64,000 nucleotides of DNA from a bacterium (lineage in GTDB: Bacteria; Spirochaetota; Spirochaetia; Treponematales; UBA12059), in NCBI GenBank assembly GCA_035530295.1, contig DATKVB010000003.1, positions 85,110 through 149,109 of the forward strand. The letters run 5' to 3'. A program made the position numbers and the translations under genes. The notes below the pieces were generated by a model, which was not told the DNA's origin, did no database searches, and worked only from the letters and a program-made list of their open reading frames with translations. Shown here in pieces: positions 54,006-63,671 of this stretch (positions within the stretch are counted from its first letter, which is position 1; every line of letters starts with the position of its first letter).

Positions 54006-54986
54006 ATGCAGTACGAACAGGAGTACCGTGAACGCTGCTCTGCGAGGGGACTCGATTCTCAAGCCATCGGCGTTGCCGTACAGGCGGTCAGAAGCCTGGA
54101 AGAACACGCGCGGGGCAAGGGCTTCTCCATGCCCGGCCTGCCGCTAGCACTGGTGGAAGATTACCTGGCGGGACTCCTCCGAGCTGGCGGTGTTGTCGAT
54201 GACACCCTTGTCGCACTGGCCAGGTACTTCACCGTTGCTAGAGCCGACGCGATTGCCATTCGGCTGCTTGCCTACCTGCTACCGATCGGCGTGCTGGATT
54301 CTATGTCGGAGCGTCTGGGATCGCTTGCAGGTGCGGAAGCCAGAGAGAGGGTCATGCGCCATGTTGACATACCGCCCCGCGGTGCACCGCCGGATTCGTA
54401 TCCCGACGCGACGAAGGCCTTTGTCGAGGCTCTCGTCGCCGAGCTTGGCGATCAACGGGCCAGGCGCGTCCTTGCGTGGAACGTACACGGCATACCACCC
54501 GAATCGTTCGCCGCAGAGCGTGCCCACTATCTGGAACTCGGTTCTGTCGACGCATGGCTTGCCGAATGGCATGACCGCCAGGTGGCGATCCTCCAGAAGC
54601 ACGCGGACGACGGCACCCTGTGGTTCGAGCAGAAGATTTCCCAGCCTGTCGTCGATTTTGTCAGGAACAATCCGGAAATCCAGGGTGGCGTCCGCGTCGG
54701 TGACACCATCTTCGTTACCAAGATACCCTACAATCCTGACCGGTTCCTCGTGTCGACCGATCCCCTGGAGAAGCGTCAGCTTGCCTGCCACTGCCCTTTG
54801 GCATCCGGAGCCATCACCCAGGATGGCTCCGGAGTGCCTCCGACCTGGTGTGCCTGTTCCGCTGGCTTCACAAAATTTCCCTTTGATGTTGTATTCGGGG
54901 TTGATACCGAGGCAACTGTCATCAAGTCGGTACTTGCAGGCGATGACCTGTGCCGGTTCGCGATACACATTCCGGCCCTGTCTTGA
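54006..54986 (+). CDS. hypothetical Cys-rich protein
   Basis: 326 aa, with GAGGAGGG upstream of the ATG. C-terminal Cys cluster ACHCPLASG...WCACSAGF...LCRF. No family recognised. Confidence 0.55.
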   Translation: MQYEQEYRERCSARGLDSQAIGVAVQAVRSLEEHARGKGFSMPGLPLALVEDYLAGLLRAGGVVDDTLVALARYFTVARADAIAIRLLAYLLPIGVLDSMSERLGSLAGAEARERVMRHVDIPPRGAPPDSYPDATKAFVEALVAELGDQRARRVLAWNVHGIPPESFAAERAHYLELGSVDAWLAEWHDRQVAILQKHADDGTLWFEQKISQPVVDFVRNNPEIQGGVRVGDTIFVTKIPYNPDRFLVSTDPLEKRQLACHCPLASGAITQDGSGVPPTWCACSAGFTKFPFDVVFGVDTEATVIKSVLAGDDLCRFAIHIPALS

Positions 54987-55035: not shown

Positions 55036-55108
55036 TCCCCTGTAGCTCAGCTGGCAGAGCAAGTGGCTGTTAACCACTGGGTCCGTGGTTCAAATCCGCG
55101 CGGGGGAG
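55036..55108 (+). tRNA. tRNA-Asn: tRNA-Asn (anticodon GTT)
   Basis: Hand-folded. Acceptor tcccctg/cggggga (7 bp), anticodon loop ct-GTT-aa, T arm cgtgg-ttcaaat-ccgcg, discriminator G. CCA is not encoded. Confidence 0.9.
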
Positions 55109-55109
55109 C
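55091..55109 (+). repeat. direct repeat copy 1 (tRNA-Asn 3' end, att-like core)
   Basis: caaatccgcgcgggggagc is identical to 55276-55294. Confidence 0.9.
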
Positions 55110-55148
55110 AAAAGAAAAGACCGTCCTTCTGGACGGTCTTTTCTTTTG
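55109..55148 (+). terminator. strong, probably bidirectional, rho-independent terminator
   Basis: 18-bp stem caaaagaaaagaccgtcc / ggacggtcttttcttttg with loop ttct. The A-tract and T-tract are contained in the stem. Confidence 0.8.
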
Positions 55149-55152
55149 CAAT

Positions 55153-55174
55153 AACCCCCACGCGGATTTGAACC
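55153..55174 (-). repeat. inverted partial copy of the tRNA T-arm/acceptor segment
   Basis: The minus strand reads ggttcaaatccgcgtgggggtt, against ggttcaaatccgcgcggggga in the tRNA. Together with the terminator it forms an ~88-bp imperfect palindrome at 55087-55174. Confidence 0.85.
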
Positions 55175-55275
55175 GAGCGAGCGCGCCGCGAATGCGGCGA
55201 AGAGCGGCCATGGAAGGCCGCGACAGCGAGCGAGGCGGGCTGGAAGGGCGAGGCACGATTTCGAGCCCTGGAAGC

Positions 55276-55294
55276 CAAATCCGCGCGGGGGAGC
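55276..55294 (+). repeat. direct repeat copy 2 (displaced tRNA-Asn 3' end, att-like)
   Basis: caaatccgcgcgggggagc is a 19/19 match to the tRNA 3' end 185 bp upstream. The upstream context is not tRNA-like. Confidence 0.9.
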
Positions 55295-55711
55295 TAGTTA
55301 AGTCTTTACCTGATAATGAAAAGATCCCTGGTTAACCCGGGGCTCTTTCGTATTCTGAGGCTGATTGGACGCGAATTGGACGCAGCCAATCAAGCTGCGA
55401 CTCGCCCGTCTGGTCAGGTCAGTAGTACAATGGCGGTGCCTACCACAAAGAAGAAATGGGGCAGGATGGCAGCAAAGAAGCAGCAGCAGCTATGATGAGC
55501 CTTTCTGTCAACTCATATTTGTTCGGGTAATACGGTGGGTGAACAGTAACATTAAATGTCCGCCAGAACCGCTTGATGTAGATATTGTCGAGGACGCGAT
55601 TCGGTCCGGCCGTGGATGCAAGGGCCCTCGTTTCCGCATTGGTAGAGGAATGTCGTTACAGGGAGCAGGGCAGGAGGACATGGTTTTCTCGGTTAGCGCC
55701 GGCGGTTTCTG

Positions 55712-56038
55712 CTATCGCGACGAGGCCAAATCGAGCCGCTTACGGCGGTGTGCGAGTATCGTGGTCTCGGCACAGGAAGCCAGTTCAAGGACGCAAGGCG
55801 CCACGAGGTGGTACTCGACCAGGGTGCTGCGTTTCTCGTCGTCGATCAGACCGGCGGCCTTGAGTTGCGACAAGTGCTTCGATGCTACCGATTTATCGAT
55901 GCCGACCTCGGCTGCCAATTCGCAGACGCACCATGGCCGTACCTTCAGCTTGTCAAGCATGGCTATCCGCATCGGATGGGCTAAGGCCTTGAACATCTCC
56001 GCCTTGAGTTCATAGCGGCGTATTGCACGACTATCCAT
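55712..56038 (-). CDS. ArsR/SmtB-family metal(loid)-responsive repressor
   Basis: 108 aa. FKALAHPMRIAMLDKL, and a CVC motif in the helix preceding the HTH (WCVCELAAEVGIDKSVASKHLSQLKAAGLI). No obvious SD. Confidence 0.85.
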   Translation of the reverse strand: MDSRAIRRYELKAEMFKALAHPMRIAMLDKLKVRPWCVCELAAEVGIDKSVASKHLSQLKAAGLIDDEKRSTLVEYHLVAPCVLELASCAETTILAHRRKRLDLASSR

Positions 56039-56046
56039 GCGCTAAG

Positions 56047-56064
56047 GTTGCAATGTTTGGCAAC
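56047..56064. promoter_or_regulatory. putative ArsR operator 1 (imperfect palindrome)
   Basis: GTTGC-aatgtttg-GCAAC, 9 nt from the arsR ATG. Shares the GTTGCAA half-site with operator 2. Confidence 0.45.
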
Positions 56065-56090
56065 AAAAGTCAAGGAGCCTCTTGACTTTT
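56065..56090. promoter_or_regulatory. perfect 10-6-10 palindrome carrying two divergent TTGACT -35-like hexamers
   Basis: aaaagtcaag-gagcct-cttgactttt, read directly. Confidence 0.5.
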
Positions 56091-56110
56091 CTGTGCAAAG
56101 TTGCAATAAT
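56082..56110 (+). promoter_or_regulatory. candidate sigma70 promoter of the permease/thiol-redox operon
   Basis: TTGACT-17 nt-AATAAT. The -10 lies in the centre of operator 2. Confidence 0.45.
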
Positions 56111-56117
56111 TTGCAAC
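56100..56117. promoter_or_regulatory. putative ArsR operator 2 (perfect 7-4-7 palindrome)
   Basis: GTTGCAA-taat-TTGCAAC, 12 nt upstream of ATG 56129. Confidence 0.55.
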
Positions 56118-56128
56118 AAGAGGTTTCA

Positions 56129-56611
56129 ATGGATACTATAGCACTCTACCTGGTTGCTTTGACGGCACTGGCTGTATCACTGGTCAAGGATAGATCCAGA
56201 ACCGCGATGGCTTTGAAAAAAGCCATGAAAGCCCTTGAAAACATTTTACCGCAGTTTATGGTCGTGCTGATCCTGGTCGCGGTTACCTTGGCCGTACTGA
56301 ATACAGAGACCATTTCACGCTTTGTCGGTTCTGGTTCCGGCGTCTGGGGCGTACTCGGCGCGTTGCTCGTCGGTGCGATAACGCTGATTCCCGGCTTTGT
56401 TGCCTTTCCGGCAGCCGCAGCCCTGTTGGCTGGAGGCGCGGGAGCAACGCAGATAGCAGCCTTCGTCTCAAGCCTCATGATGGTGGGTGTCGTTACCCTG
56501 CCCATGGAGATTAAATTCTTCGGCAAGCAGGCAGCGATATCGCGCAACTCGCTGGCGTTCCTGTTCTCGATCGTCGCGGCAGTGTTTGTCGGATGGGTGG
56601 TGTCGCTATGA
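56129..56611 (+). CDS. DUF318/ArsP-type permease, N-terminal half (split gene)
   Basis: 160 aa from ATG 56129, about 4 TM helices. Gly-rich GSGSGVWGVLGALLVGAITLIPGFVAFPAAAALL. ATGA overlap with the next half. Confidence 0.6.
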   Translation: MDTIALYLVALTALAVSLVKDRSRTAMALKKAMKALENILPQFMVVLILVAVTLAVLNTETISRFVGSGSGVWGVLGALLVGAITLIPGFVAFPAAAALLAGGAGATQIAAFVSSLMMVGVVTLPMEIKFFGKQAAISRNSLAFLFSIVAAVFVGWVVSL

Positions 56612-57144
56612 ACAAGACCCTGAAACGCTACTCAGGCGTCTTCCTCGCCGTCGTCGCCTTCATTGCCTTTATTCTGTTATTTCCGGCATGGCGAGACAAG
56701 GCTCTAGCGTCCATCGTCTTCCAGAGCAGTACCATGCTCCTCGTGATTCCACCGATCTTCATCCTGCTCGGACTCCTCGATGTTTGGGTGCCAAGGCAGC
56801 AGATGATCAAATACATGGGCGCGGGCTCCGGAGCCAAAGGACCAGTACTCGCTTTCCTGCTCGGTTCCTTTGCGGCCGGCCCGTTGTATGGCGCTTTCCC
56901 GTTTGCCGCCATCCTCATGAAGAAGGGCGCTAGTTTCATGAACATCCTGATTTTCATCGGTGCATGGTCTACGACCAAGATTCCGATGCTCCTGTTCGAG
57001 ATTTCGGCCCTTGGCGCCCGCTTTGCACTGTCGCGCCTTGCCATCGACATCGTTGGAATCATCATCATCGCCTTTGCCATCAAGGCGACGCTGCCAAAAA
57101 AGGAAGTAGAGCGACTCTATGCCGAGGCGGCATTGATCGACTGA
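56608..57144 (+). CDS. DUF318/ArsP-type permease, C-terminal half (split gene)
   Basis: 178 aa, about 4-5 TM helices. GAGSGAKGPVLAFLLGSFAAGPLYGAFPFAA. Translationally coupled to the preceding half. Confidence 0.6.
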   Translation: MNKTLKRYSGVFLAVVAFIAFILLFPAWRDKALASIVFQSSTMLLVIPPIFILLGLLDVWVPRQQMIKYMGAGSGAKGPVLAFLLGSFAAGPLYGAFPFAAILMKKGASFMNILIFIGAWSTTKIPMLLFEISALGARFALSRLAIDIVGIIIIAFAIKATLPKKEVERLYAEAALID

Positions 57145-57202
57145 GAGCCCTTTTCGATGCACTATTAGATACGTGAATATATTTGAACCTAGGAGATTCT
57201 TT

Positions 57203-57454
57203 ATGAAGGTACAGATTCTGGGAACAGGTTGCCCCAAGTGCAAGCTCCTCGAGCAGCACGCCCGCGAGGCAGTAGCCGAGCTCGGCATACAGGTCGACAT
57301 CGAAAAGGTAACGGACGTCGAAGCGATCATGGAGATGGGCGTGATGATGACGCCAGCCCTCGCGATTGACGATGTCGTGAAGAGTGTCGGCAAGGTGCTG
57401 ACTAAAGACCAAGTAAAGTCCTATCTGGACGGAGGTAAATTCCATGCCGTGTAA
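57203..57454 (+). CDS. small thioredoxin-fold protein (redox-active disulfide protein 2 / TM0996-like)
   Basis: 83 aa. MKVQILGTGCPKCKLLEQ has the CPKC redox motif at the canonical N-terminal position. AGGAG lies upstream of ATG 57203. Confidence 0.8.
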   Translation: MKVQILGTGCPKCKLLEQHAREAVAELGIQVDIEKVTDVEAIMEMGVMMTPALAIDDVVKSVGKVLTKDQVKSYLDGGKFHAV

Positions 57455-57812
57455 TTGTGGAAGCAACAACGAAACCAATCTGATTTATGCATGTTCAGGT
57501 GCAGCCAATACCGGACTCCTGGCCGACCAGGTGATGCGTACCCTGAACCGGGACAAGATCGGCGACAGCACCTGCCTCGCGGCGATGGGAGCCGACCTTT
57601 CTGGCTTCCTCCAGTCCGCGAGAAATGCGACGAGGAATATAGTGCTCGACGGGTGCAAGGTATCCTGTGGAAAGAAGATATTCGAGAAGAACGGCATCCC
57701 GTACCAGCACTACATCATGACCGACTATGAAGTCGAGAAGGGCAAGACGCCTATCACCGGAGACCTTATCGAGGCCGTCGCGGAACGGATAGCCGACCAG
57801 GTGAAGTCATGA
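57444..57812 (+). CDS. DGC-domain putative zinc-binding protein
   Basis: 122 aa, Cys-rich (MPCNCG..., YACSGAANTG, VLDGCKVSCGKK containing the DGC tripeptide). GGAGGT SD. 11-nt overlap with the upstream gene. Confidence 0.65.
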   Translation: MPCNCGSNNETNLIYACSGAANTGLLADQVMRTLNRDKIGDSTCLAAMGADLSGFLQSARNATRNIVLDGCKVSCGKKIFEKNGIPYQHYIMTDYEVEKGKTPITGDLIEAVAERIADQVKS

Positions 57813-58993
57813 GCGCGAAAGAATTGTCCCCGAACAAGAAGCTTCTCATTGTCTTCGGCGTCTTCCTCGCGGCCTACTTCATTCCCTGGGGCGCATCACG
57901 CGTGCTCGGCGCGACGAACGAGGCATTCCTCATGCTCGGCGAGTACGCCCGGCAGCATGTGCTCCTCTGCCTTGTGCCGGCCATGTTCATCGCCGGAGCG
58001 ATCACGGTATTCCTGAACCAGCAGGCGGTCATGCGCTACCTCGGGCCAGACGCCAACCGCCTCACCGCCTATGGGGTCGCCTCGGTCTCGGGCGCCATCC
58101 TCGCGGTCTGCTCCTGCACGGTCCTGCCGATCTTCAAGGGCATCTACAAGAAGGGCGCGGGCATTGGCCCCGCCGTTGCTTTCTTGTACTCGGGGCCGGC
58201 CATCAATATCCTCGCCATCGTGCTGTCGGCCAAGGTTTTCGGCTGGAAGCTCGGTCTGGCCAGGACGGTGGGCGCCATCCTCTTCTCAATTGTCATCGGT
58301 CTCCTTATGGCCCTCATCTACCGCAAGGAGGACAAGCAGCGCGCTGCCGACGCGCGGATGTTCGCCAAGCCGGATGAGAAGCCCGCGCGGAGCCTCGGGC
58401 AGATGGTCGTCTATATGGCGAGCATGATCGGCATCCTCGTGTTCGTGAACTGGGCCAATTCCAAGGGCGGCAGCTCGGTCTGGGATGCGATCTATACCGC
58501 GAAGTACTGGATCACCGGCGCCTTCGCGTTGGTCCTGGTTTACACCCTCGCCAAGTGGTTCACGAAGGATGATCGCCTGGAGTGGGTGGTCGCGACTCGT
58601 GACTTCTCCCTGCAAATCCTGCCGCTCCTCTTCGGGGGTGTGCTTGTCTCCGGTTTCCTGCTGGGGCGCCCGGGGCATGACGCCCTCATCCCGAGCGCCT
58701 GGATCGGGAGCCTTCTCGGCGGCAATTCCTTCTTCGCCAACTTCGTGGCCTCATTGGCCGGCGCCCTGATGTACTTTGCAACGCTGACCGAGATTCCAAT
58801 CGTCCAGGGCCTCCTCGGCGCGGGTATGGGACAGGGGCCGGCGTTGGCACTCCTTCTCGCGGGACCGAGTCTCTCACTGCCTTCGATACTTGTCATCGCG
58901 GGCGAGCTCGGCTGGAAGAAGACATTGACCTACACGGGCTTGGTGGTAGCCCTTTCGACCCTCGCAGGACTCGCCTTTGGTACCATTGTCTGA
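57809..58993 (+). CDS. full-length DUF318/ArsP/YraQ-type permease
   Basis: 394 aa, about 9-10 TM helices. CxC motif in a TM helix (AILAVCSCTVLPIFKG) followed by GIGPAVAFLYSGPAINI. ATGA overlap with the DGC gene. Confidence 0.75.
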   Translation: MSAKELSPNKKLLIVFGVFLAAYFIPWGASRVLGATNEAFLMLGEYARQHVLLCLVPAMFIAGAITVFLNQQAVMRYLGPDANRLTAYGVASVSGAILAVCSCTVLPIFKGIYKKGAGIGPAVAFLYSGPAINILAIVLSAKVFGWKLGLARTVGAILFSIVIGLLMALIYRKEDKQRAADARMFAKPDEKPARSLGQMVVYMASMIGILVFVNWANSKGGSSVWDAIYTAKYWITGAFALVLVYTLAKWFTKDDRLEWVVATRDFSLQILPLLFGGVLVSGFLLGRPGHDALIPSAWIGSLLGGNSFFANFVASLAGALMYFATLTEIPIVQGLLGAGMGQGPALALLLAGPSLSLPSILVIAGELGWKKTLTYTGLVVALSTLAGLAFGTIV

Positions 58994-59047
58994 TGTTTTT
59001 TTCCCGTGGCAAGTGCTAAGCGCGCCGCGGCTTAGGAAGGAGCTACC

Positions 59048-59410
59048 ATGACCATTATAGAACGATTCGAAGCCATGAAGAAGTCCGGCGCCGAGGTCCA
59101 GCGCCCTCTCGAGCTCTTTGGGGAGCTCGACCCGAAAAACACGATCGCCCATCTCGAAGCCAAGACCGCGACATTCTCCGACGGAGCTGTCCCGATAAAA
59201 TACAAGGCTCTCGCGGCGATATCGGCAGCCGTCGCCCTTGATTCGCCCTCGTGCATCATGAACAACGTGAAGCTGGCCACGATGAATGGAGCGAGCAAGG
59301 CGGAGATCATGGAAGTGATCGCTGTCGCCAGGTTCGCGAAGGCCGCGACAGTCATCTCGTCATCGGCGCCTGCGCTCGAATGGCTCGCGGCGCGGGAGAA
59401 GCAAGAATGA
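59048..59410 (+). CDS. carboxymuconolactone decarboxylase (AhpD-like) family protein
   Basis: 120 aa. PIKYKALAAISAAVALDSPSCIMNNVKLATMNGASKAEIMEVIAV fits the CMD/AhpD helical core, but only a single Cys sits at the usual CxxC position. AGGAAGGAG SD. Confidence 0.65.
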   Translation: MTIIERFEAMKKSGAEVQRPLELFGELDPKNTIAHLEAKTATFSDGAVPIKYKALAAISAAVALDSPSCIMNNVKLATMNGASKAEIMEVIAVARFAKAATVISSSAPALEWLAAREKQE

Positions 59411-59826
59411 GACCTCGATGGACCGCGATCGCCTTAGTTTCCCTTGCCCTTGTGGCAGTAAGTTGCTCGAAGGCGTCCGCGGATCCCGGCGCCGGGTCGC
59501 CCGGGGGAACACCAACCATCCCGGTTGCGGTAACGAAGGCGCGGATGGTCACCTTCATCGAGCTTGGCTCGGTGAAGTGCATCCCGTGCAAGGCCATGCA
59601 GCCGGTGATGGAATCCGTCCGCACAAAATACTCCGATGAGGTCAGCGTGCTCTTCTACGATGTCTGGACCAGTGAAGGCCAGCCCTACGGACAGAAGTTC
59701 CGAATCAGGGTCATCCCAACCCAGGTGTTCCTCGATAAGGACGGCAAGGAGTATTACCGCCACGAGGGCTTTTTCCCGGAGGAGGAGCTCCTGAAGATCC
59801 TCGCGAAGGGCGGCGTCAAGCTGTGA
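59407..59826 (+). CDS. exported lipoprotein with thioredoxin fold (CIPC active site)
   Basis: Signal peptide plus lipobox (LALVAVSC). VTFIELGSVKCIPCKAMQPVM redox motif. ATGA overlap upstream. Confidence 0.75.
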   Translation: MRPRWTAIALVSLALVAVSCSKASADPGAGSPGGTPTIPVAVTKARMVTFIELGSVKCIPCKAMQPVMESVRTKYSDEVSVLFYDVWTSEGQPYGQKFRIRVIPTQVFLDKDGKEYYRHEGFFPEEELLKILAKGGVKL

Positions 59827-60524
59827 TCGAATCCATAGTCGCCTCGATCAGCGCGGCTTTCGACACTCCCTCGGCGATCGCCTTCGGAGCGGCGGCATTG
59901 TGGGGGCTCCTGAGCGTTCTCCTGAGCCCCTGCCATCTCGGAGCCATTCCGCTCATCGTGGCCTACATCAACAATGGCACCCGTCCGGGCAGGCGACGAG
60001 CCTTCTGCTATTCCTTCCTGTTCGCCATGGGCCTCCTTGTCATGCTCGCCATAATCGGCGTTGTGACGAGTCTGGCTGGAAGGCTCTTGGGTGATGTCGG
60101 CCCCGTGGCCAGGATAATCGTGGCGGTCTTCCTGATCCTCTGCGGGCTTTGGCTCATGGACGTCCCGCCTTTCTCCCGCCTGACGCCTTCCTTTTCGGTG
60201 AAGCAGGGCGGTCGGCGAGGTCCGCTTGGCGCCTTAGCCCTTGGTCTCGTCTACGGGGTGATCCTCGGTCCCTGCTCCTTCGCCTTCCTCGCGCCGATGC
60301 TCGGCTTCGTATTCTCCGCAGGACGGGCGGAGATCGCCTATGGCGCCAGTCTTATGGCTTTCTACGCGCTCGGCCACACCGTGGCTATTGTCGCGGCGGG
60401 GACCTTCGGGGACTACGTCGGTCGCCTGCTTCGAAAGAAAGGCGCGGGTATGGCCGCGACCTGGTTCAAGAGAATCCTCGGCGCCATCGTCATGATCGCT
60501 GGCTTATTGCAGATTATCGGTTGA
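59823..60524 (+). CDS. ccdA: CcdA/DsbD-family transmembrane thiol:disulfide electron transporter
   Basis: 233 aa, 6 TM helices, with two membrane-embedded Cys (LLSPCHLGAIPL and ILGPCSFAFLAP). GTGA overlap upstream. Confidence 0.8.
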   Translation: MIESIVASISAAFDTPSAIAFGAAALWGLLSVLLSPCHLGAIPLIVAYINNGTRPGRRRAFCYSFLFAMGLLVMLAIIGVVTSLAGRLLGDVGPVARIIVAVFLILCGLWLMDVPPFSRLTPSFSVKQGGRRGPLGALALGLVYGVILGPCSFAFLAPMLGFVFSAGRAEIAYGASLMAFYALGHTVAIVAAGTFGDYVGRLLRKKGAGMAATWFKRILGAIVMIAGLLQIIG

Positions 60525-60548
60525 ATCAACACCGTGAAAGGAAGATCA

Positions 60549-61526
60549 ATGGAACGCAACGCTGAAGACGGACATACCGGACATCATCACCATCATGCCG
60601 ATGGGCACATCCATGGCGCGAAAGCCATCTCTGGTGGAGGTTCGGGCCGCAAGCTCCTCCTGTCGCTGGTCATCACAGGAGCCACGCTCGTGGCAGAGCT
60701 GGTCGGAGGACTCCTCACGGGAAGCCTGGCCCTGCTTTCCGATGCGGCGCACGTCTTTCTGGACATCTTCGCCCTGGCTCTGAGTTACGGCGCGATCAGG
60801 CTCGCGGCCCGCGCCCCGAGCGGAAAGCACAGCTACGGTTTCGCCAGGATGAAGGTGCTGGCCGCCTTCATCAACGGCGCGACGTTGCTCCTCATCTCGG
60901 TTGAGATCTTCCGCGAGTCTGTCGCGCGATTCGCCAATCCCCACTCCGTCCTCGCCCTGCCCATGCTTGTCGTCGCCGGGATCGGTCTCGTCGCCAACCT
61001 CCTTGTCGCTCTGGTTCTCGGCGGGCACGACCATGAGGACCTCAACGCGCGCTCCGCCTTCCTCCATGTGGTCGGGGACGCGCTCTCTTCGGTAGGTGTC
61101 ATCCTAGCTGGAATCATCATGCTACTCACCGGCTGGACCTGGGTTGACCCGGTCGCGAGCATGCTGATCGGCATCATCATCCTGTCTGGCTCGTTCCGGG
61201 TGCTTAAGGAGGCGATCCACCTGCTCAACGAGGGTGCCCCCGAGGATGCCGAGGGCGATGAGGTGACGGCCGCGCTCGCGGCCCTACCTGGCGTGAAGAG
61301 CGTGCATGACACCCATGTGTGGGCCCTCGACCCCTCGTTCCGCGTCTTGAGCGCGCATATCGTGCTCGAGGATCAACCTTTGAGTCGAACCGCCGGGCTC
61401 ATGTCGGACGTGAAGCGTCTGCTACGCGAGCGGTACAAGGTTGAACATACGACCATACAGTTCGAATGCGCCGATTGCGAGCAGTGCTCAGGTTCTGCGG
61501 ATTGTGAAGAAGGAGTTACCCTATGA
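60549..61526 (+). CDS. cation diffusion facilitator (CzcD/ZitB-like) metal efflux protein
   Basis: His-rich N-terminus GHTGHHHHHADGHIHG. TM2 LSDAAHVFLD and TM5 LHVVGDALSS HxxxD metal sites. Cys-rich C-terminus CADCEQCSGSADCEEG. Confidence 0.9.
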   Translation: MERNAEDGHTGHHHHHADGHIHGAKAISGGGSGRKLLLSLVITGATLVAELVGGLLTGSLALLSDAAHVFLDIFALALSYGAIRLAARAPSGKHSYGFARMKVLAAFINGATLLLISVEIFRESVARFANPHSVLALPMLVVAGIGLVANLLVALVLGGHDHEDLNARSAFLHVVGDALSSVGVILAGIIMLLTGWTWVDPVASMLIGIIILSGSFRVLKEAIHLLNEGAPEDAEGDEVTAALAALPGVKSVHDTHVWALDPSFRVLSAHIVLEDQPLSRTAGLMSDVKRLLRERYKVEHTTIQFECADCEQCSGSADCEEGVTL

Positions 61527-62302
61527 TCACTGTTGCCCTTCTGCTCAAGGGCCTTGCCGCCGCCATCATCGTCGGCTTTGTGACCGCGTCAATCAAGTCA
61601 TGGGTTGACCGTGTCTTCCTCGTCATCATGCTGGTCGGCCTCGTTGGCCTTCCAATCTCGGACGCTATCATCGTCAACCTGGCCGTTGTAGCGCTTGCGG
61701 CCCTTCTCATGGTCGTGCGTCAACGGAAAATGCTCTCCTCCGCCATCCCCACAGGGAAGGCCGAGTGGCTCCTTATTATCATCCCGGCGCTTCTGGGCGG
61801 TATCGGTGGTCGACTGGCCGGCTCGGCGCTCGGTTCGGGCGTCTTGCTGTTTATACTGGGCGTCTACGCCATCTTGGTCGGCATCCGGATCCTGTTGATT
61901 AAGCCTTTGCCCGAGCGGGAGACGAAAACCCGCATGGCCTGGATTGGCCCCGTTAGTCTTGCCTCGGGCGTTCTCGCGGGACTCATCTCTGCCGGCGGCA
62001 AGCCGTTTACCGTTCCAGCCTACAACAACGCGATGGGACATCATCCGCAACGGGCCTATGCTTTCGCCTCCCTTGGAGTTGCGGTGGCAAGCTGGGCCGC
62101 GATGGCGACGCAGCTTGCTGTTATCTCCATGCCTTCACTTTCCGAAATACTCCTCGCCCTCTACGAGTTTGTCCTCATCACTGCGGTAGCCCTTGTCGTG
62201 AACAGGTTCTGGTCCCAGAAGCTCAACAAGATCGTAAATCTGGTCATAGCTCCGGTTCTGGTTCTGGTCGGTATTCGCTTTATATTGCTGGCTCTGTCCT
62301 GA
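61523..62302 (+). CDS. TauE/SafE (TSUP) family membrane transporter
   Basis: 259 aa, about 8 TM helices, with Gly-rich repeats typical of TSUP proteins. ATGA overlap with the CDF gene and a GAAGGAG SD. The family call is moderately supported. Confidence 0.6.
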   Translation: MITVALLLKGLAAAIIVGFVTASIKSWVDRVFLVIMLVGLVGLPISDAIIVNLAVVALAALLMVVRQRKMLSSAIPTGKAEWLLIIIPALLGGIGGRLAGSALGSGVLLFILGVYAILVGIRILLIKPLPERETKTRMAWIGPVSLASGVLAGLISAGGKPFTVPAYNNAMGHHPQRAYAFASLGVAVASWAAMATQLAVISMPSLSEILLALYEFVLITAVALVVNRFWSQKLNKIVNLVIAPVLVLVGIRFILLALS

Positions 62303-62375: not shown

Positions 62376-62404
62376 TTGACAGTCAATCGGAGTAGTTATA
62401 GTAT
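62376..62404 (+). promoter_or_regulatory. candidate sigma70 promoter of the second arsR module, probably giving a leaderless or near-leaderless mRNA
   Basis: TTGACA-17 nt-TAGTAT ends 7 nt before ATG 62412. The -35 is embedded in the palindrome TTGAC-A-GTCAA. No SD precedes the ATG. Confidence 0.5.
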
Positions 62405-62411
62405 ATCGTCG

Positions 62412-62786
62412 ATGAACGATAAGTCAATGTTGCCAGGCGCTTCCTCTTCCGAGGGGACCCCTGACCATGCGGGTGCGGCTGACGAAGAGCTCTCATCGCT
62501 TGCCAAGGCGCTTGCCCATCCGGTGCGAGTTCAGATCCTCAGGATCCTGGCCGGGAGGACGAGTTGCGTCTGCGGCGATATCGTCAGCCAGCTGCCCCTG
62601 GCCCAATCCACCGTTTCCGAACATTTACGGATTCTGAAAGCCTCTGGTTTGATTCTCGGTGAAGTAGACGGACCGCGCGTCTGTTACTGCATCGATGTTA
62701 CGGTTCTCGATCGGTTCAGGTCCCTTGTTCAAGAGTTACCCCGGCCCGTCGACCTGTCGAAGCAATCAAATTTCGAGGTGAACTAG
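62412..62786 (+). CDS. ArsR/SmtB-family metal(loid)-responsive repressor (second copy)
   Basis: 124 aa from ATG 62412. LAKALAHPVRVQILRIL, and a CVC motif plus HTH (SCVCGDIVSQLPLAQSTVSEHLRILKASGLI). Confidence 0.85.
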   Translation: MNDKSMLPGASSSEGTPDHAGAADEELSSLAKALAHPVRVQILRILAGRTSCVCGDIVSQLPLAQSTVSEHLRILKASGLILGEVDGPRVCYCIDVTVLDRFRSLVQELPRPVDLSKQSNFEVN

Positions 62787-63671
62787 GTGAATACCCTGCT
62801 TGAGTCGCTGAAGTTCTTCTTCTCGATCTTTCTGGAGCTCACGGCCCTCTTCCTGGGCATCAGCACCCTCATAGGGCTTATCTTCCGCTTCATCTCGCAG
62901 GAGGCATTGGGCAAGGCGCTTTCGAAGAAAGGCCTGCTTGGCAATTTCCTGGGAGCCGCGCTCGGCGCGGTCACGCCTTTCTGCTCCTGCTCCACGATTC
63001 CCATGACGGTGGGCCTGCTCCGTGCCGGGGTTCCCTTCGGCGCGACTATGTCCTTCGTCCTCGCCTCTCCCCTGCTCAACCCGATCATTCTGACCATGTT
63101 TTTCGCCTTGCTGGGCTGGAAGGCCACCCTCATCTATGGGGGTGTCACCTTCCTTGCGGCCATGTTCAGCGGCGCGGTCCTTGAGGTATTGGGGCTGCAG
63201 AAAGATGTCAAGAAGGTCAGGATCAGCGGAGGGCGCCAGGAGAGCGACAGGTCGTTGCCTTTCGCGATGAAGTTGCGCGAAGCCTCCCAGGACGCATGGC
63301 ATGATTTCACCGGCATCCTCGTCTATCTGGTCCTGGGTGTCGCTGTCGGCGCGGCGATCTACGGCTACCTGCCCATGGATTTCGTGACGAGGCTCGCTGG
63401 TTCCGGCAACCCCTTCGCGATTCCCGTGGCGGCGATCATCGGTATCCCTCTCTATGTGCGCGCCGAGACCGTGATCCCCATCGCCGTCGCCCTCACCCAG
63501 AAGGGCATGAGCATGGGCGCGGTGCTGGCCCTTGTTATCGGCGGCGCGGGTATGAGCATTCCGGAGATGAGCATGCTTGCGGGGATCTTCAAGCGGCGAC
63601 TCGTGGTCGTATTCGTTGGAGTAGTATTCCTGACCGCGGTGATCGCGGGCTTCAGTTTCAACGTTCTTTAG
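62787..63671 (+). CDS. ArsP-like (DUF318) permease
   Basis: 294 aa. The GTG start abuts the arsR stop. VTPFCSCSTIPMTVGLLRAGVPFGATMSFVLASPLLNPI carries the TPFCSC-type motif remembered for organoarsenical permease ArsP relatives. Confidence 0.75.
   Translation: MNTLLESLKFFFSIFLELTALFLGISTLIGLIFRFISQEALGKALSKKGLLGNFLGAALGAVTPFCSCSTIPMTVGLLRAGVPFGATMSFVLASPLLNPIILTMFFALLGWKATLIYGGVTFLAAMFSGAVLEVLGLQKDVKKVRISGGRQESDRSLPFAMKLREASQDAWHDFTGILVYLVLGVAVGAAIYGYLPMDFVTRLAGSGNPFAIPVAAIIGIPLYVRAETVIPIAVALTQKGMSMGAVLALVIGGAGMSIPEMSMLAGIFKRRLVVVFVGVVFLTAVIAGFSFNVL

Follow-up and report, generated by a model that had tools for sequence, protein, structure and literature searches.

The locus described here lies near the right end of a 64,000-nucleotide stretch (the window; positions 85,110 to 149,109 of contig DATKVB010000003.1), part of a 572-kb metagenome contig, and consists of the gene of an ArsR-type repressor, ArsR1, and a divergent string of ten genes, g1 to g10, for permeases, thiol-redox proteins and metal transporters. 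The ten genes occupy 56129–62302 of the plus strand and arsR1 occupies 55712–56038 of the minus strand; a divergent ArsR with a CVC motif had already been described in a first-pass annotation and is borne out, with the motif in the form WCVCE, by reading the open reading frames and junctions. Gene coordinates and overlaps are based on the open reading frame listing, direct reading of the sequence and inspection of the junctions. Pfam matches were counted when above the gathering score and NCBIfam matches were judged against the cut-offs of the models. The junctions are tight, with five 4-nt overlaps rather than the four first counted (ATGA at g1/g2, g4/g5, g6/g7 and g9/g10, and GTGA at g7/g8), the 11-nt overlap of g3 and g4, as noted earlier, and gaps that stay within the 60 bp first given, at 58, 54 and 24 nt (the last shrinks to 9 nt with an alternative g9 start). 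A ribosome-binding site is present in each of the three gaps. Terminator-like sites are not above shuffled expectation, and none is predicted within the intergenic gaps of the string. All of the protein families proposed for these genes were found above the Pfam gathering score, g1 alone having no Pfam match.

ArsR1 has the winged-helix fold of the ArsR/SmtB repressors (Pfam HTH_5, PF01022, E = 2e-11; NCBIfam HTH_metalloreg, NF033788, 76.3 bits, cut-off 55). The CVC motif aligns with Cys32/Cys34 of R773 ArsR; the third cysteine of R773 ArsR (Cys37) is missing and ArsR1 has C82 and C89 instead. All of 54 homologues have C37, C82 and C89, and 98% have C39. The string is preceded by a sigma-70-like promoter on the plus strand (TTGACT-17-AATAAT with an extended TG, 56082–56110), the -10 box of which is covered by a perfect 18-bp palindrome, GTTGCAATAATTTGCAAC (56100–56117), the presumed ArsR1 operator. 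A second operator-like palindrome (site 1, GTTGCAATGTTTGGCAAC, 56047–56064), with one mismatch, adjoins the arsR1 start. These two are the only matches to the palindrome in the whole 64 kb, where 0.17 are expected by chance. With up to two mismatches, the palindrome is found immediately ahead of the string's first gene in 40 of the 70 related loci examined, against a single background match in 955 kb, and its position is kept whether the string starts with g1 or g3 and regardless of the cassette content. Judged from the sequence, an ArsR1 dimer would occupy the palindrome over the -10 box, and binding of a trivalent arsenical at C37/C39, possibly with C82/C89, would release it.

Hydropathy scans identify g1, g2, g5, g8, g9 and g10 as polytopic membrane proteins; g3, g4 and g6 have no hydrophobic segment and are probably cytoplasmic. 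The first two genes of the string had been annotated as a split permease. g1 (56129–56611) encodes a cysteine-free membrane protein of 160 residues with about five transmembrane segments and has no match in the Pfam scan, and g2 (56608–57144) encodes a cysteine-free protein of 178 residues that matches Pfam ArsP_1 with 38.9 bits in its N-terminal half only (profile positions 15–145). Aligned to each other with hhalign, g1 and g2 give a probability of 96.8% (E = 2e-10), identifying them as paralogues, and each is the equivalent of a single repeat unit in an ArsP_1-type permease. The pair is kept in 22 of 63 related loci and in a distant lineage (locus L125; loci of the surveys described below are denoted by L and a number), and lies upstream of g5 on the same strand in 16 of the 63. 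A split or frameshifted permease was rejected because the two genes are paralogous, keep their ATGA junction and persist in these loci; they form a pair of half-size subunits conserved in distant lineages. Neither contains cysteine, and the Cys-X-Cys motif of ArsP is absent from both.

g5 (57809–58993) encodes an intact ArsP_1 permease of 394 residues, the ‘400-aa type’ (PF03773, 248.5 bits). The membrane CSC motif (C101 and C103), recognised at the outset, is invariant and C54 is conserved; residues 83–170 match residues 306–393 in hhalign and represent an internal repeat. The relatives of g5 number thousands. The best 120 clusters are 85–100% identical to it, and the named taxa among these 120 are mostly Spirochaetia or Rectinemataceae metagenome-assembled genomes (MAGs). 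Such high identity suggests either recent horizontal spread or very strong constraint. A PDB search with g5 gave no match and a search of a plasmid collection gave a single weak partial match that was uninformative. Across many spirochaete MAGs, g5 shows 85–96% identity over more than 120 protein clusters and is clearly more conserved than its neighbours (44–88% identity for ArsR1 and 51–87% for the DGC protein); Acr3, in many of the loci that carry g5, is likewise about 80–95% identical.

The two genes between the half-size pair and g5 encode small cysteine-containing proteins, a CPKC mini-thioredoxin and a DGC-domain protein, and both assignments agree with the earlier annotation. g3 (57203–57454) is an 83-residue thioredoxin-fold protein of the MTH895/ArsE family (Pfam Thioredoxin_3, PF13192, 91.3 bits; TIGR00412, 99.3 bits, cut-off 62). 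It matches the structure PDB 1ILO (E = 1e-19), and the CPKC cysteines, C10 and C13, are invariant in 81 sequences. The equation of ArsE with PF13192 follows the name of the NCBIfam model and the Pseudodesulfovibrio mercurii preprint cited below. g4 (57444–57812) matches Pfam DGC (PF08859) with 94.9 bits (cut-off 27); six cysteines (C3, C5, C17, C44, C71 and C75) and the triplet D69-G70-C71 are invariant. The AlphaFold2 model of g4 (predicted local distance difference test score, pLDDT, 82.9) has a small Rossmann-like β-α-β fold with a disordered N-terminal CxC arm. In the model, C17, C44 and C71/C75 follow strands 1–3, and three cysteines stand at the C-terminal ends of β1 to β3. No significant match to g4 was found among solved structures in the PDB.

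The 3′ half of the string encodes five further proteins. g6 (59048–59410) has a CMD domain (PF02627, 39.4 bits, cut-off 23), which agrees with its description as AhpD-like. The catalytic CxxC of AhpD is lacking; the motif is SPSC, with a single conserved cysteine, and the same is seen at L097. In NCBIfam, g6 weakly matches ArsM/AhpD fusions and an arsenosugar-associated family. g7 (59407–59826) is an exported thioredoxin (Pfam Thioredoxin_2/Thioredoxin) with an invariant CIPC motif and one N-terminal hydrophobic segment, a signal peptide, that ends in cysteine; it is probably a lipoprotein, as proposed before. Joined to it by the GTGA overlap, g8 (59823–60524) encodes a CcdA-type membrane thiol-disulfide electron carrier (DsbD_TM, PF02683, 53.3 bits, cut-off 27.1) with two conserved cysteines, C37 and C151, so that g7 and g8 have the features of a CcdA and exported-thioredoxin pair. 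g9 (60549–61526, with an alternative GTG start at 60534) is a CDF cation exporter (Pfam Cation_efflux and ZT_dimer; TIGR01297, 258.8 bits, cut-off 82.35), rich in His at its N-terminus and in Cys at its C-terminus; it matches the ZitB-like model with 240 bits, below the equivalog cut-off of 408. g10 (61523–62302) is a TauE/TSUP-family permease (TauE/SafE, PF01925, 51.9 bits, cut-off 32.6) with a conserved HH pair at 173–174, and no equivalog was found for it in the NCBIfam scan. The His/Cys-rich CDF and the TauE/TSUP permease are as first assigned.

The conservation of the locus was followed in 80 species-representative genomes, mostly of Spirochaetota, which were collected with g5 as seed and in which the island proteins were mapped by tblastn. 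g3 is located directly upstream of g5 in 71 of 73 loci, a DGC gene is placed between g3 and g5 in 36 of 73, and 52 of 63 loci have a divergent ArsR. The position directly after g5 is occupied by Acr3, mostly then followed by ArsC, in 14 of 69 loci (gaps of -23 to 77 nt where measured), by the thioredoxin/CcdA pair in 12 of 69 and by the CDF in 8 of 69. Acr3 or ArsC is found anywhere in the locus in 52 of 80. The core is an ArsR, the small thioredoxin, an optional DGC protein and the 394-residue permease; the downstream genes are variable. Among close relatives, L093 has the order ArsR1-g1-g2-g3-g4-g5-Trx-CcdA followed by the ArsR2 and ArsR3 units, an SNF2 helicase and an integrase. L090 is organised as L093, but has a DUF2798 gene in the place of CMD, carries the CDF and lacks TauE. 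The region of g6 is missing from both. The DUF2798 protein of L090 (11203–11427) has 74 residues and is encoded between g5 and the exported thioredoxin; in the same locus, ResB/CcsA/C_GCAxxG_C_C genes separate the CDF from ArsR2.

The CMD and TauE genes were nearly absent from the loci collected with g5 (0 of 69 and 1 of 54, respectively). A second survey, made after the g5 round and seeded with TauE (metagenome scan) and CMD, found both in ars-type clusters elsewhere, and the view of these genes as incidental captures was rejected. At L097, the order ArsP-type permease-CMD-Trx-CcdA-CDF-TauE-ArsR is as in the window, with identities of 31% for the permease (to the third permease of the island, described below), 78% for CMD, 60% for Trx, 60% for CcdA, 69% for CDF and 73% for TauE. 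L095 (Acr3 end-ArsP-Trx_3-ferredoxin-DUF6951-DGC-Trx-CcdA-MFS-CMD-CDF-TauE, with ArsA on the opposite strand) has eight of the families of the string in one string. This unit of L095 (1–11192) consists of twelve same-strand genes and encodes, beyond the families of the window string, a 4Fe-4S ferredoxin, a protein of the DUF6951 family and a 467-residue MFS transporter. The ArsP-type permeases of these two loci, L095 and L097, share 26–33% identity with g5. L120 has g1-g2-g3-g5-CMD-CDF, and L125 has ArsR-ArsP-Trx_3-TehA-like-g1-g2-CMD and then ArsR-ArsC-Acr3. The TehA-like gene of L125 (4895–5989) encodes a SLAC1/TehA-family transporter and stands between the ArsE-like thioredoxin and the g1/g2-like pair. 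L123 has MFS-CMD-ArsR-ArsD-ArsA. CMD and TauE form a tight two-gene module elsewhere, and once, at L124, this module lies directly under an ArsR1 orthologue (75% identity), divergent from it and with an operator-like site. A DsrE gene adjoins the ArsR-CMD-TauE unit of L124. A second strain from an unrelated study (L132) has g3-g4-g5-CMD-Trx-CcdA-CDF, the order of g3 to g9, at 83–95% identity. As CMD and TauE are typically embedded in ars-type clusters of other lineages, the families form a recurrent neighbourhood network, and the window is among its most complete instances. Chance juxtaposition, which the first-pass annotation had named as one outcome that would undo its proposal, does not agree with L132 sharing g3–g9 or with the reunion of the families at L097 and L095. 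In the survey for the full gene string, cassettes and sub-strings recur and the complete ten-gene set does not.

The string does not stand alone. It is followed within the window by a second ArsR unit on the same strand, which the first-pass annotation had missed, and, just past the window end, by a classical Acr3/ArsC unit. The second unit starts with its own promoter (TTGACA-17-TAGTAT) and a different palindrome (TATCGT-N6-ACGATA), together at 62376–62419, from which we conclude that the ten-gene unit ends at g10; read-through from g10 may occur. ArsR2, a second CVC-containing ArsR, is encoded at 62427–62786 and is followed by a third ArsP-type permease of 294 residues with the motif TPFCSCS (62787–63671; PF03773, 196.9 bits) and by a DUF2703 gene that begins at about 63685 and runs past the window end, all on the plus strand. 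The DUF2703 protein has CC pairs near both ends and could be a metallochaperone. Beyond the window, a divergent ArsR3 accompanies Acr3 (TIGR00832, 396.6 bits, cut-off 282.8), a rhodanese and an LMWP-type ArsC (further units at L007 9641–14196). A HipA/HipB toxin-antitoxin pair at the right end of the island (L007 14180–15780) may stabilise it.

All three ArsR units and HipBA are bracketed by 231-bp direct repeats that are 98.3% identical and 14,077 bp apart. The left copy lies at 55066–55296 and the right copy beyond the window, at L007 16357–16587, equivalent to window positions 69143–69373. The left repeat begins at nucleotide 31 of a tRNA-Asn (GTT) gene (55036–55109, plus strand) and includes the 3′ half of the tRNA; within each repeat, 20 nt of the tRNA 3′ end are present a second time, a pattern suggestive of integrations that followed one another. 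The genes called between the tRNA and a point 4 kb past the right repeat include no integrase, and the related island in L093 has an integrase nearby. An imperfect palindrome of about 88 nt (55087–55174, 85% complementary) lies in the left repeat, starting in the tRNA 3′ end. Just outside the island, between topoisomerase IV and the tRNA, a 326-residue protein with a weak DUF6144 match (54006–54986) has a Cys-rich C-terminus (CHCPLASG...WCACSAGF). Identical copies of the locus are present in at least six assemblies, all of one population. In another sample, the 14-kb segment assembles as a circle (L003, ena:ERZ27256847:k141_2750573, 14,218 nt) with a terminal overlap of 141 nt inside TauE; 14,218 minus 141 is 14,077, and the circle closes via a hybrid of the right and left repeats. 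The chromosomal contigs of other samples break within the repeat, and the chromosomal contig of the L003 sample (L128) ends inside it. Excision of the segment, its tandem duplication or the assembly process could each account for the circle. A pure k-mer artefact is unlikely, as the repeats share no identical stretch longer than 96 nt, which is below k = 141, and as right and left repeat are mixed at the junction.

The lack of terminators in the gaps, a promoter under a perfect palindrome and redox and metal residues that are invariant across homologues argue that the string is more than a chance array. It is best explained as the largest of three ArsR-headed units on a 14-kb island of a Spirochaetota-like anaerobe. 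We interpret it as an ArsR-repressed resistance operon of arsenic type, directed at trivalent arsenicals and stacked from recurrent cassettes on a horizontally acquired island, a reading that we hold to be probable (roughly 0.6). The first-pass annotation had proposed a thiophilic metal(loid) detoxification machine. That general reading, taken as a metalloid detoxification unit, is supported, and Acr3 and ArsC point to arsenic, since Acr3 directly succeeds g5 in 14 of 69 relatives and one or both genes are found in most of the surveyed loci.

Known systems place the cassettes in the same setting. The ArsP of Campylobacter jejuni is an efflux permease for methylarsenite and roxarsone(III) (TCDB ArsP family). 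The third permease and g5 have in common with it PF03773 and a membrane Cys-X-Cys (TPFCSCS in the third permease and CSC in g5), but g5 is longer by about 100 residues and g1/g2 are cysteine-free. The classical ArsR-Acr3-ArsC arrangement occurs on the same island as ArsR3-Acr3-rhodanese-ArsC and is joined into the ArsR1-headed g3–g5 string in at least ten relatives, whereas the ten-gene string itself is without Acr3, ArsB or ArsC. A published comparative-genomics study reported three redox families in ars operons, in eight cases from seven organisms, and proposed that they feed ArsC. The same three redox families are encoded here, and its ArsP types of about 300 and about 400 residues correspond to the third permease and g5, respectively; that study was comparative genomics alone and leaves DGC, CMD, CDF, TauE and half-size permeases unmentioned. 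The closest experimental parallel is ‘operon C’ of P. mercurii ND132, ArsR5-ArsP-ArsE (PF13192)-DGC (PF08859), whose expression rises with As(III) and with As(V) in RNA-seq (bioRxiv 10.1101/2022.10.17.512643). As in our string, an ArsR, a PF03773 permease, PF13192 and PF08859 proteins are encoded in one unit; in operon C, however, the permease comes first and the half-size pair, CcdA/Trx, CMD, CDF and TauE are lacking.

A tentative route for the substrate can be drawn from these assignments. Trivalent arsenicals, most likely in organo- or thio- form, would leave the cytoplasm through the CSC-bearing g5 and likewise through a cysteine-free heterodimer of g1 and g2. The CPKC protein g3 and the six-Cys DGC protein would be the cytoplasmic thiol partners of the permeases; they could keep the thiols of the permeases or the substrate reduced, or bind As(III) and hand it over. 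By analogy with established CcdA systems, g8 would pass reducing equivalents to the exported CIPC thioredoxin, and the two would keep envelope thiols reduced as trivalent arsenicals cross the diderm periplasm. CMD and TauE would act on an anion that contains sulfur or arsenic and export it, and the CDF would pump out Zn/Cd that accompanies arsenic or that arsenic drives from thiolate sites.

Several observations weigh against an arsenic-type operon. The CVC motif is found also in the Cd/Zn-sensing CadC. Within the DNA available for each locus, neither Acr3 nor ArsC is seen in 28 of the 80 loci, and in 35 of 69 none of Acr3, Trx/CcdA and CDF follows g5. The CDF, a divalent-cation exporter, is directly 3′ of g5 in the eight genomes counted above, among them the isolate Rectinema subterraneum SURF-ANA1, which has the order ArsR1-g3-g5-CDF. 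At L122, the sole exception in the second survey, CMD-TauE stands without an ars gene in view. The permease family alone does not fix the substrate, because the CSC motif is common to the ArsP_1 relatives SO_0444, a Cu/Zn efflux family, and SaoE (Haft 2022, 10.1101/2022.07.06.499078). These are the nearest NCBIfam models for g5 and the third permease, and g5 scores far below both equivalog cut-offs (112 bits against 300 for SO_0444 and 96 against 325 for SaoE). Further points concern the coherence of the string. All ten genes together are found in no other locus surveyed, and the full order is known from one population only. Nucleotide identity to close relatives varies in blocks along the string, and the GC content at third codon positions is 63% in g1, about 70% in g2–g4 and 83% in g5. 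Since the ten-gene order is confined to one population and the GC and identity blocks differ, the co-location could be due to island assembly instead of joint function.

In the most integrated version, which we regard as possible but clearly the less probable one, the string would encode a single trans-envelope arsenical detoxification pathway of diderm anaerobes with several undescribed ars determinants. The DGC protein, with its mobile CxC arm, and the ArsE-like thioredoxin dedicated to it would then reduce or chaperone arsenicals of the pentavalent, organo- or thio- kinds in the cytoplasm, and the DGC protein would be a candidate for the bacterial methylarsenate-type reductase. Export would have a second route in g1/g2, an anion containing sulfur or arsenic would leave by way of the single-Cys AhpD-like protein and TauE, and CcdA with the exported thioredoxin would protect the periplasm. 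The first-pass annotation had likewise suggested one unified machine. The cassettes occur in many other combinations, and a lineage-specific stack describes them better.

At the other extreme, the genes would be functionally independent determinants that share a promoter as a by-product of island assembly, with no hand-over or redox coupling between them. We consider this unlikely. Besides the single ten-gene locus and the blocks of different history, with the jump at g5, it agrees with the changing occupant of the slot after g5 (Acr3, Trx/CcdA, CDF, DUF2798 or nothing) and with the mobile contexts of the loci (RecT/PDDEXK, integrase and tRNA-flanking repeats). However, the families reunite in distant lineages (L095, L097, L120 and L125) at 30–78% identity and in partly different orders, which is hard to obtain without selection for co-occurrence. 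In addition, the 4-nt overlaps at g4/g5, g6/g7 and g9/g10 join genes of different cassettes and couple them translationally, and the ArsR1 orthologue of L124 directly heads CMD-TauE.

A thiophilic divalent-metal (Zn/Cd/Cu) resistance operon is less likely again. ArsR1 would then sense cations like CadC or CzrA, with the ArsP_1 permeases as cation exporters in the manner of the SO_0444 family, the DGC protein as a zinc buffer and the CDF as the main pump, and the arsenic genes would be incidental neighbours, gathered as resistance islands gather determinants. The CDF is indeed a good match to its family and recurs after g5, SO_0444 and SaoE are the closest curated models and have the CSC motif in common with the permeases, and the DGC protein is labelled ‘putative zinc-binding protein’ by Pfam and NCBI. 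Yet ArsR1 has neither the N-terminal Cys pair of CadC nor the α5 His/Asp site of the SmtB/CzrA type, the permease scores are far too low for either equivalog, and the context here is ars rather than an SAO locus or copper/zinc genes. Acr3 after g5 is also commoner than the CDF (14 compared with 8 of 69). This explanation and that of sulfur stress are both weakened by the linkage of Acr3/ArsC to the same string in relatives, by ArsR1 orthologues with the same operator motif that head differing cassettes, and by the arsenic induction of the homologous P. mercurii operon. BigR operons are known to include TauE-like permeases, but an operon against reactive-sulfur stress (from sulfide, persulfide or sulfite), of the BigR/CstR type and under a thiol-switch repressor of the ArsR family, is very improbable here: the TauE family known for sulfite/sulfonate export, the four thiol-redox proteins, the island rhodanese, the DsrE beside ArsR-CMD-TauE at L124 and weak matches of the ArsRs to BigR would fit, whereas the three ArsRs score 31.9, 27.2 and 40.4 bits against a BigR cut-off of 155, persulfide dioxygenase and sulfide:quinone reductase are not present, and the ArsP-type permeases, the CDF and the Acr3/ArsC/ArsA/ArsD neighbours are left unexplained.

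The first-pass annotation had also known of no described system that unites all of these genes. No other ten-gene locus was found, but earlier publications cover parts of the arrangement, both ArsR-ArsP-ArsE-DGC and the presence of CcdA/thioredoxin in ars operons. CMD, TauE, the CDF and the half-size permease pair appear to be new ars associations; no paper tying any of them to ars operons was found, within an incomplete coverage of the literature. The interest of the locus rests chiefly on these recurrent undescribed partners and on the question of the roles of the ArsE-like and DGC proteins.

ArsE-like thioredoxins, DGC proteins and CcdA/Trx were first noticed in ars operons more than a decade ago, and the arsenic-type operon proposed here, together with its relatives, maps their companions in compact, testable form: the ArsR1 operator, the half-size permease pair, the CMD-TauE module under an ArsR1 orthologue and the recurrent CDF. 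If the links are not functional, the locus would be a clear example of resistance islands stacking cassettes behind one promoter. If they are functional, several gene families would join the arsenic resistome of anoxic sediments and groundwater, and the metagenomes used for predicting arsenic mobility could be better annotated.

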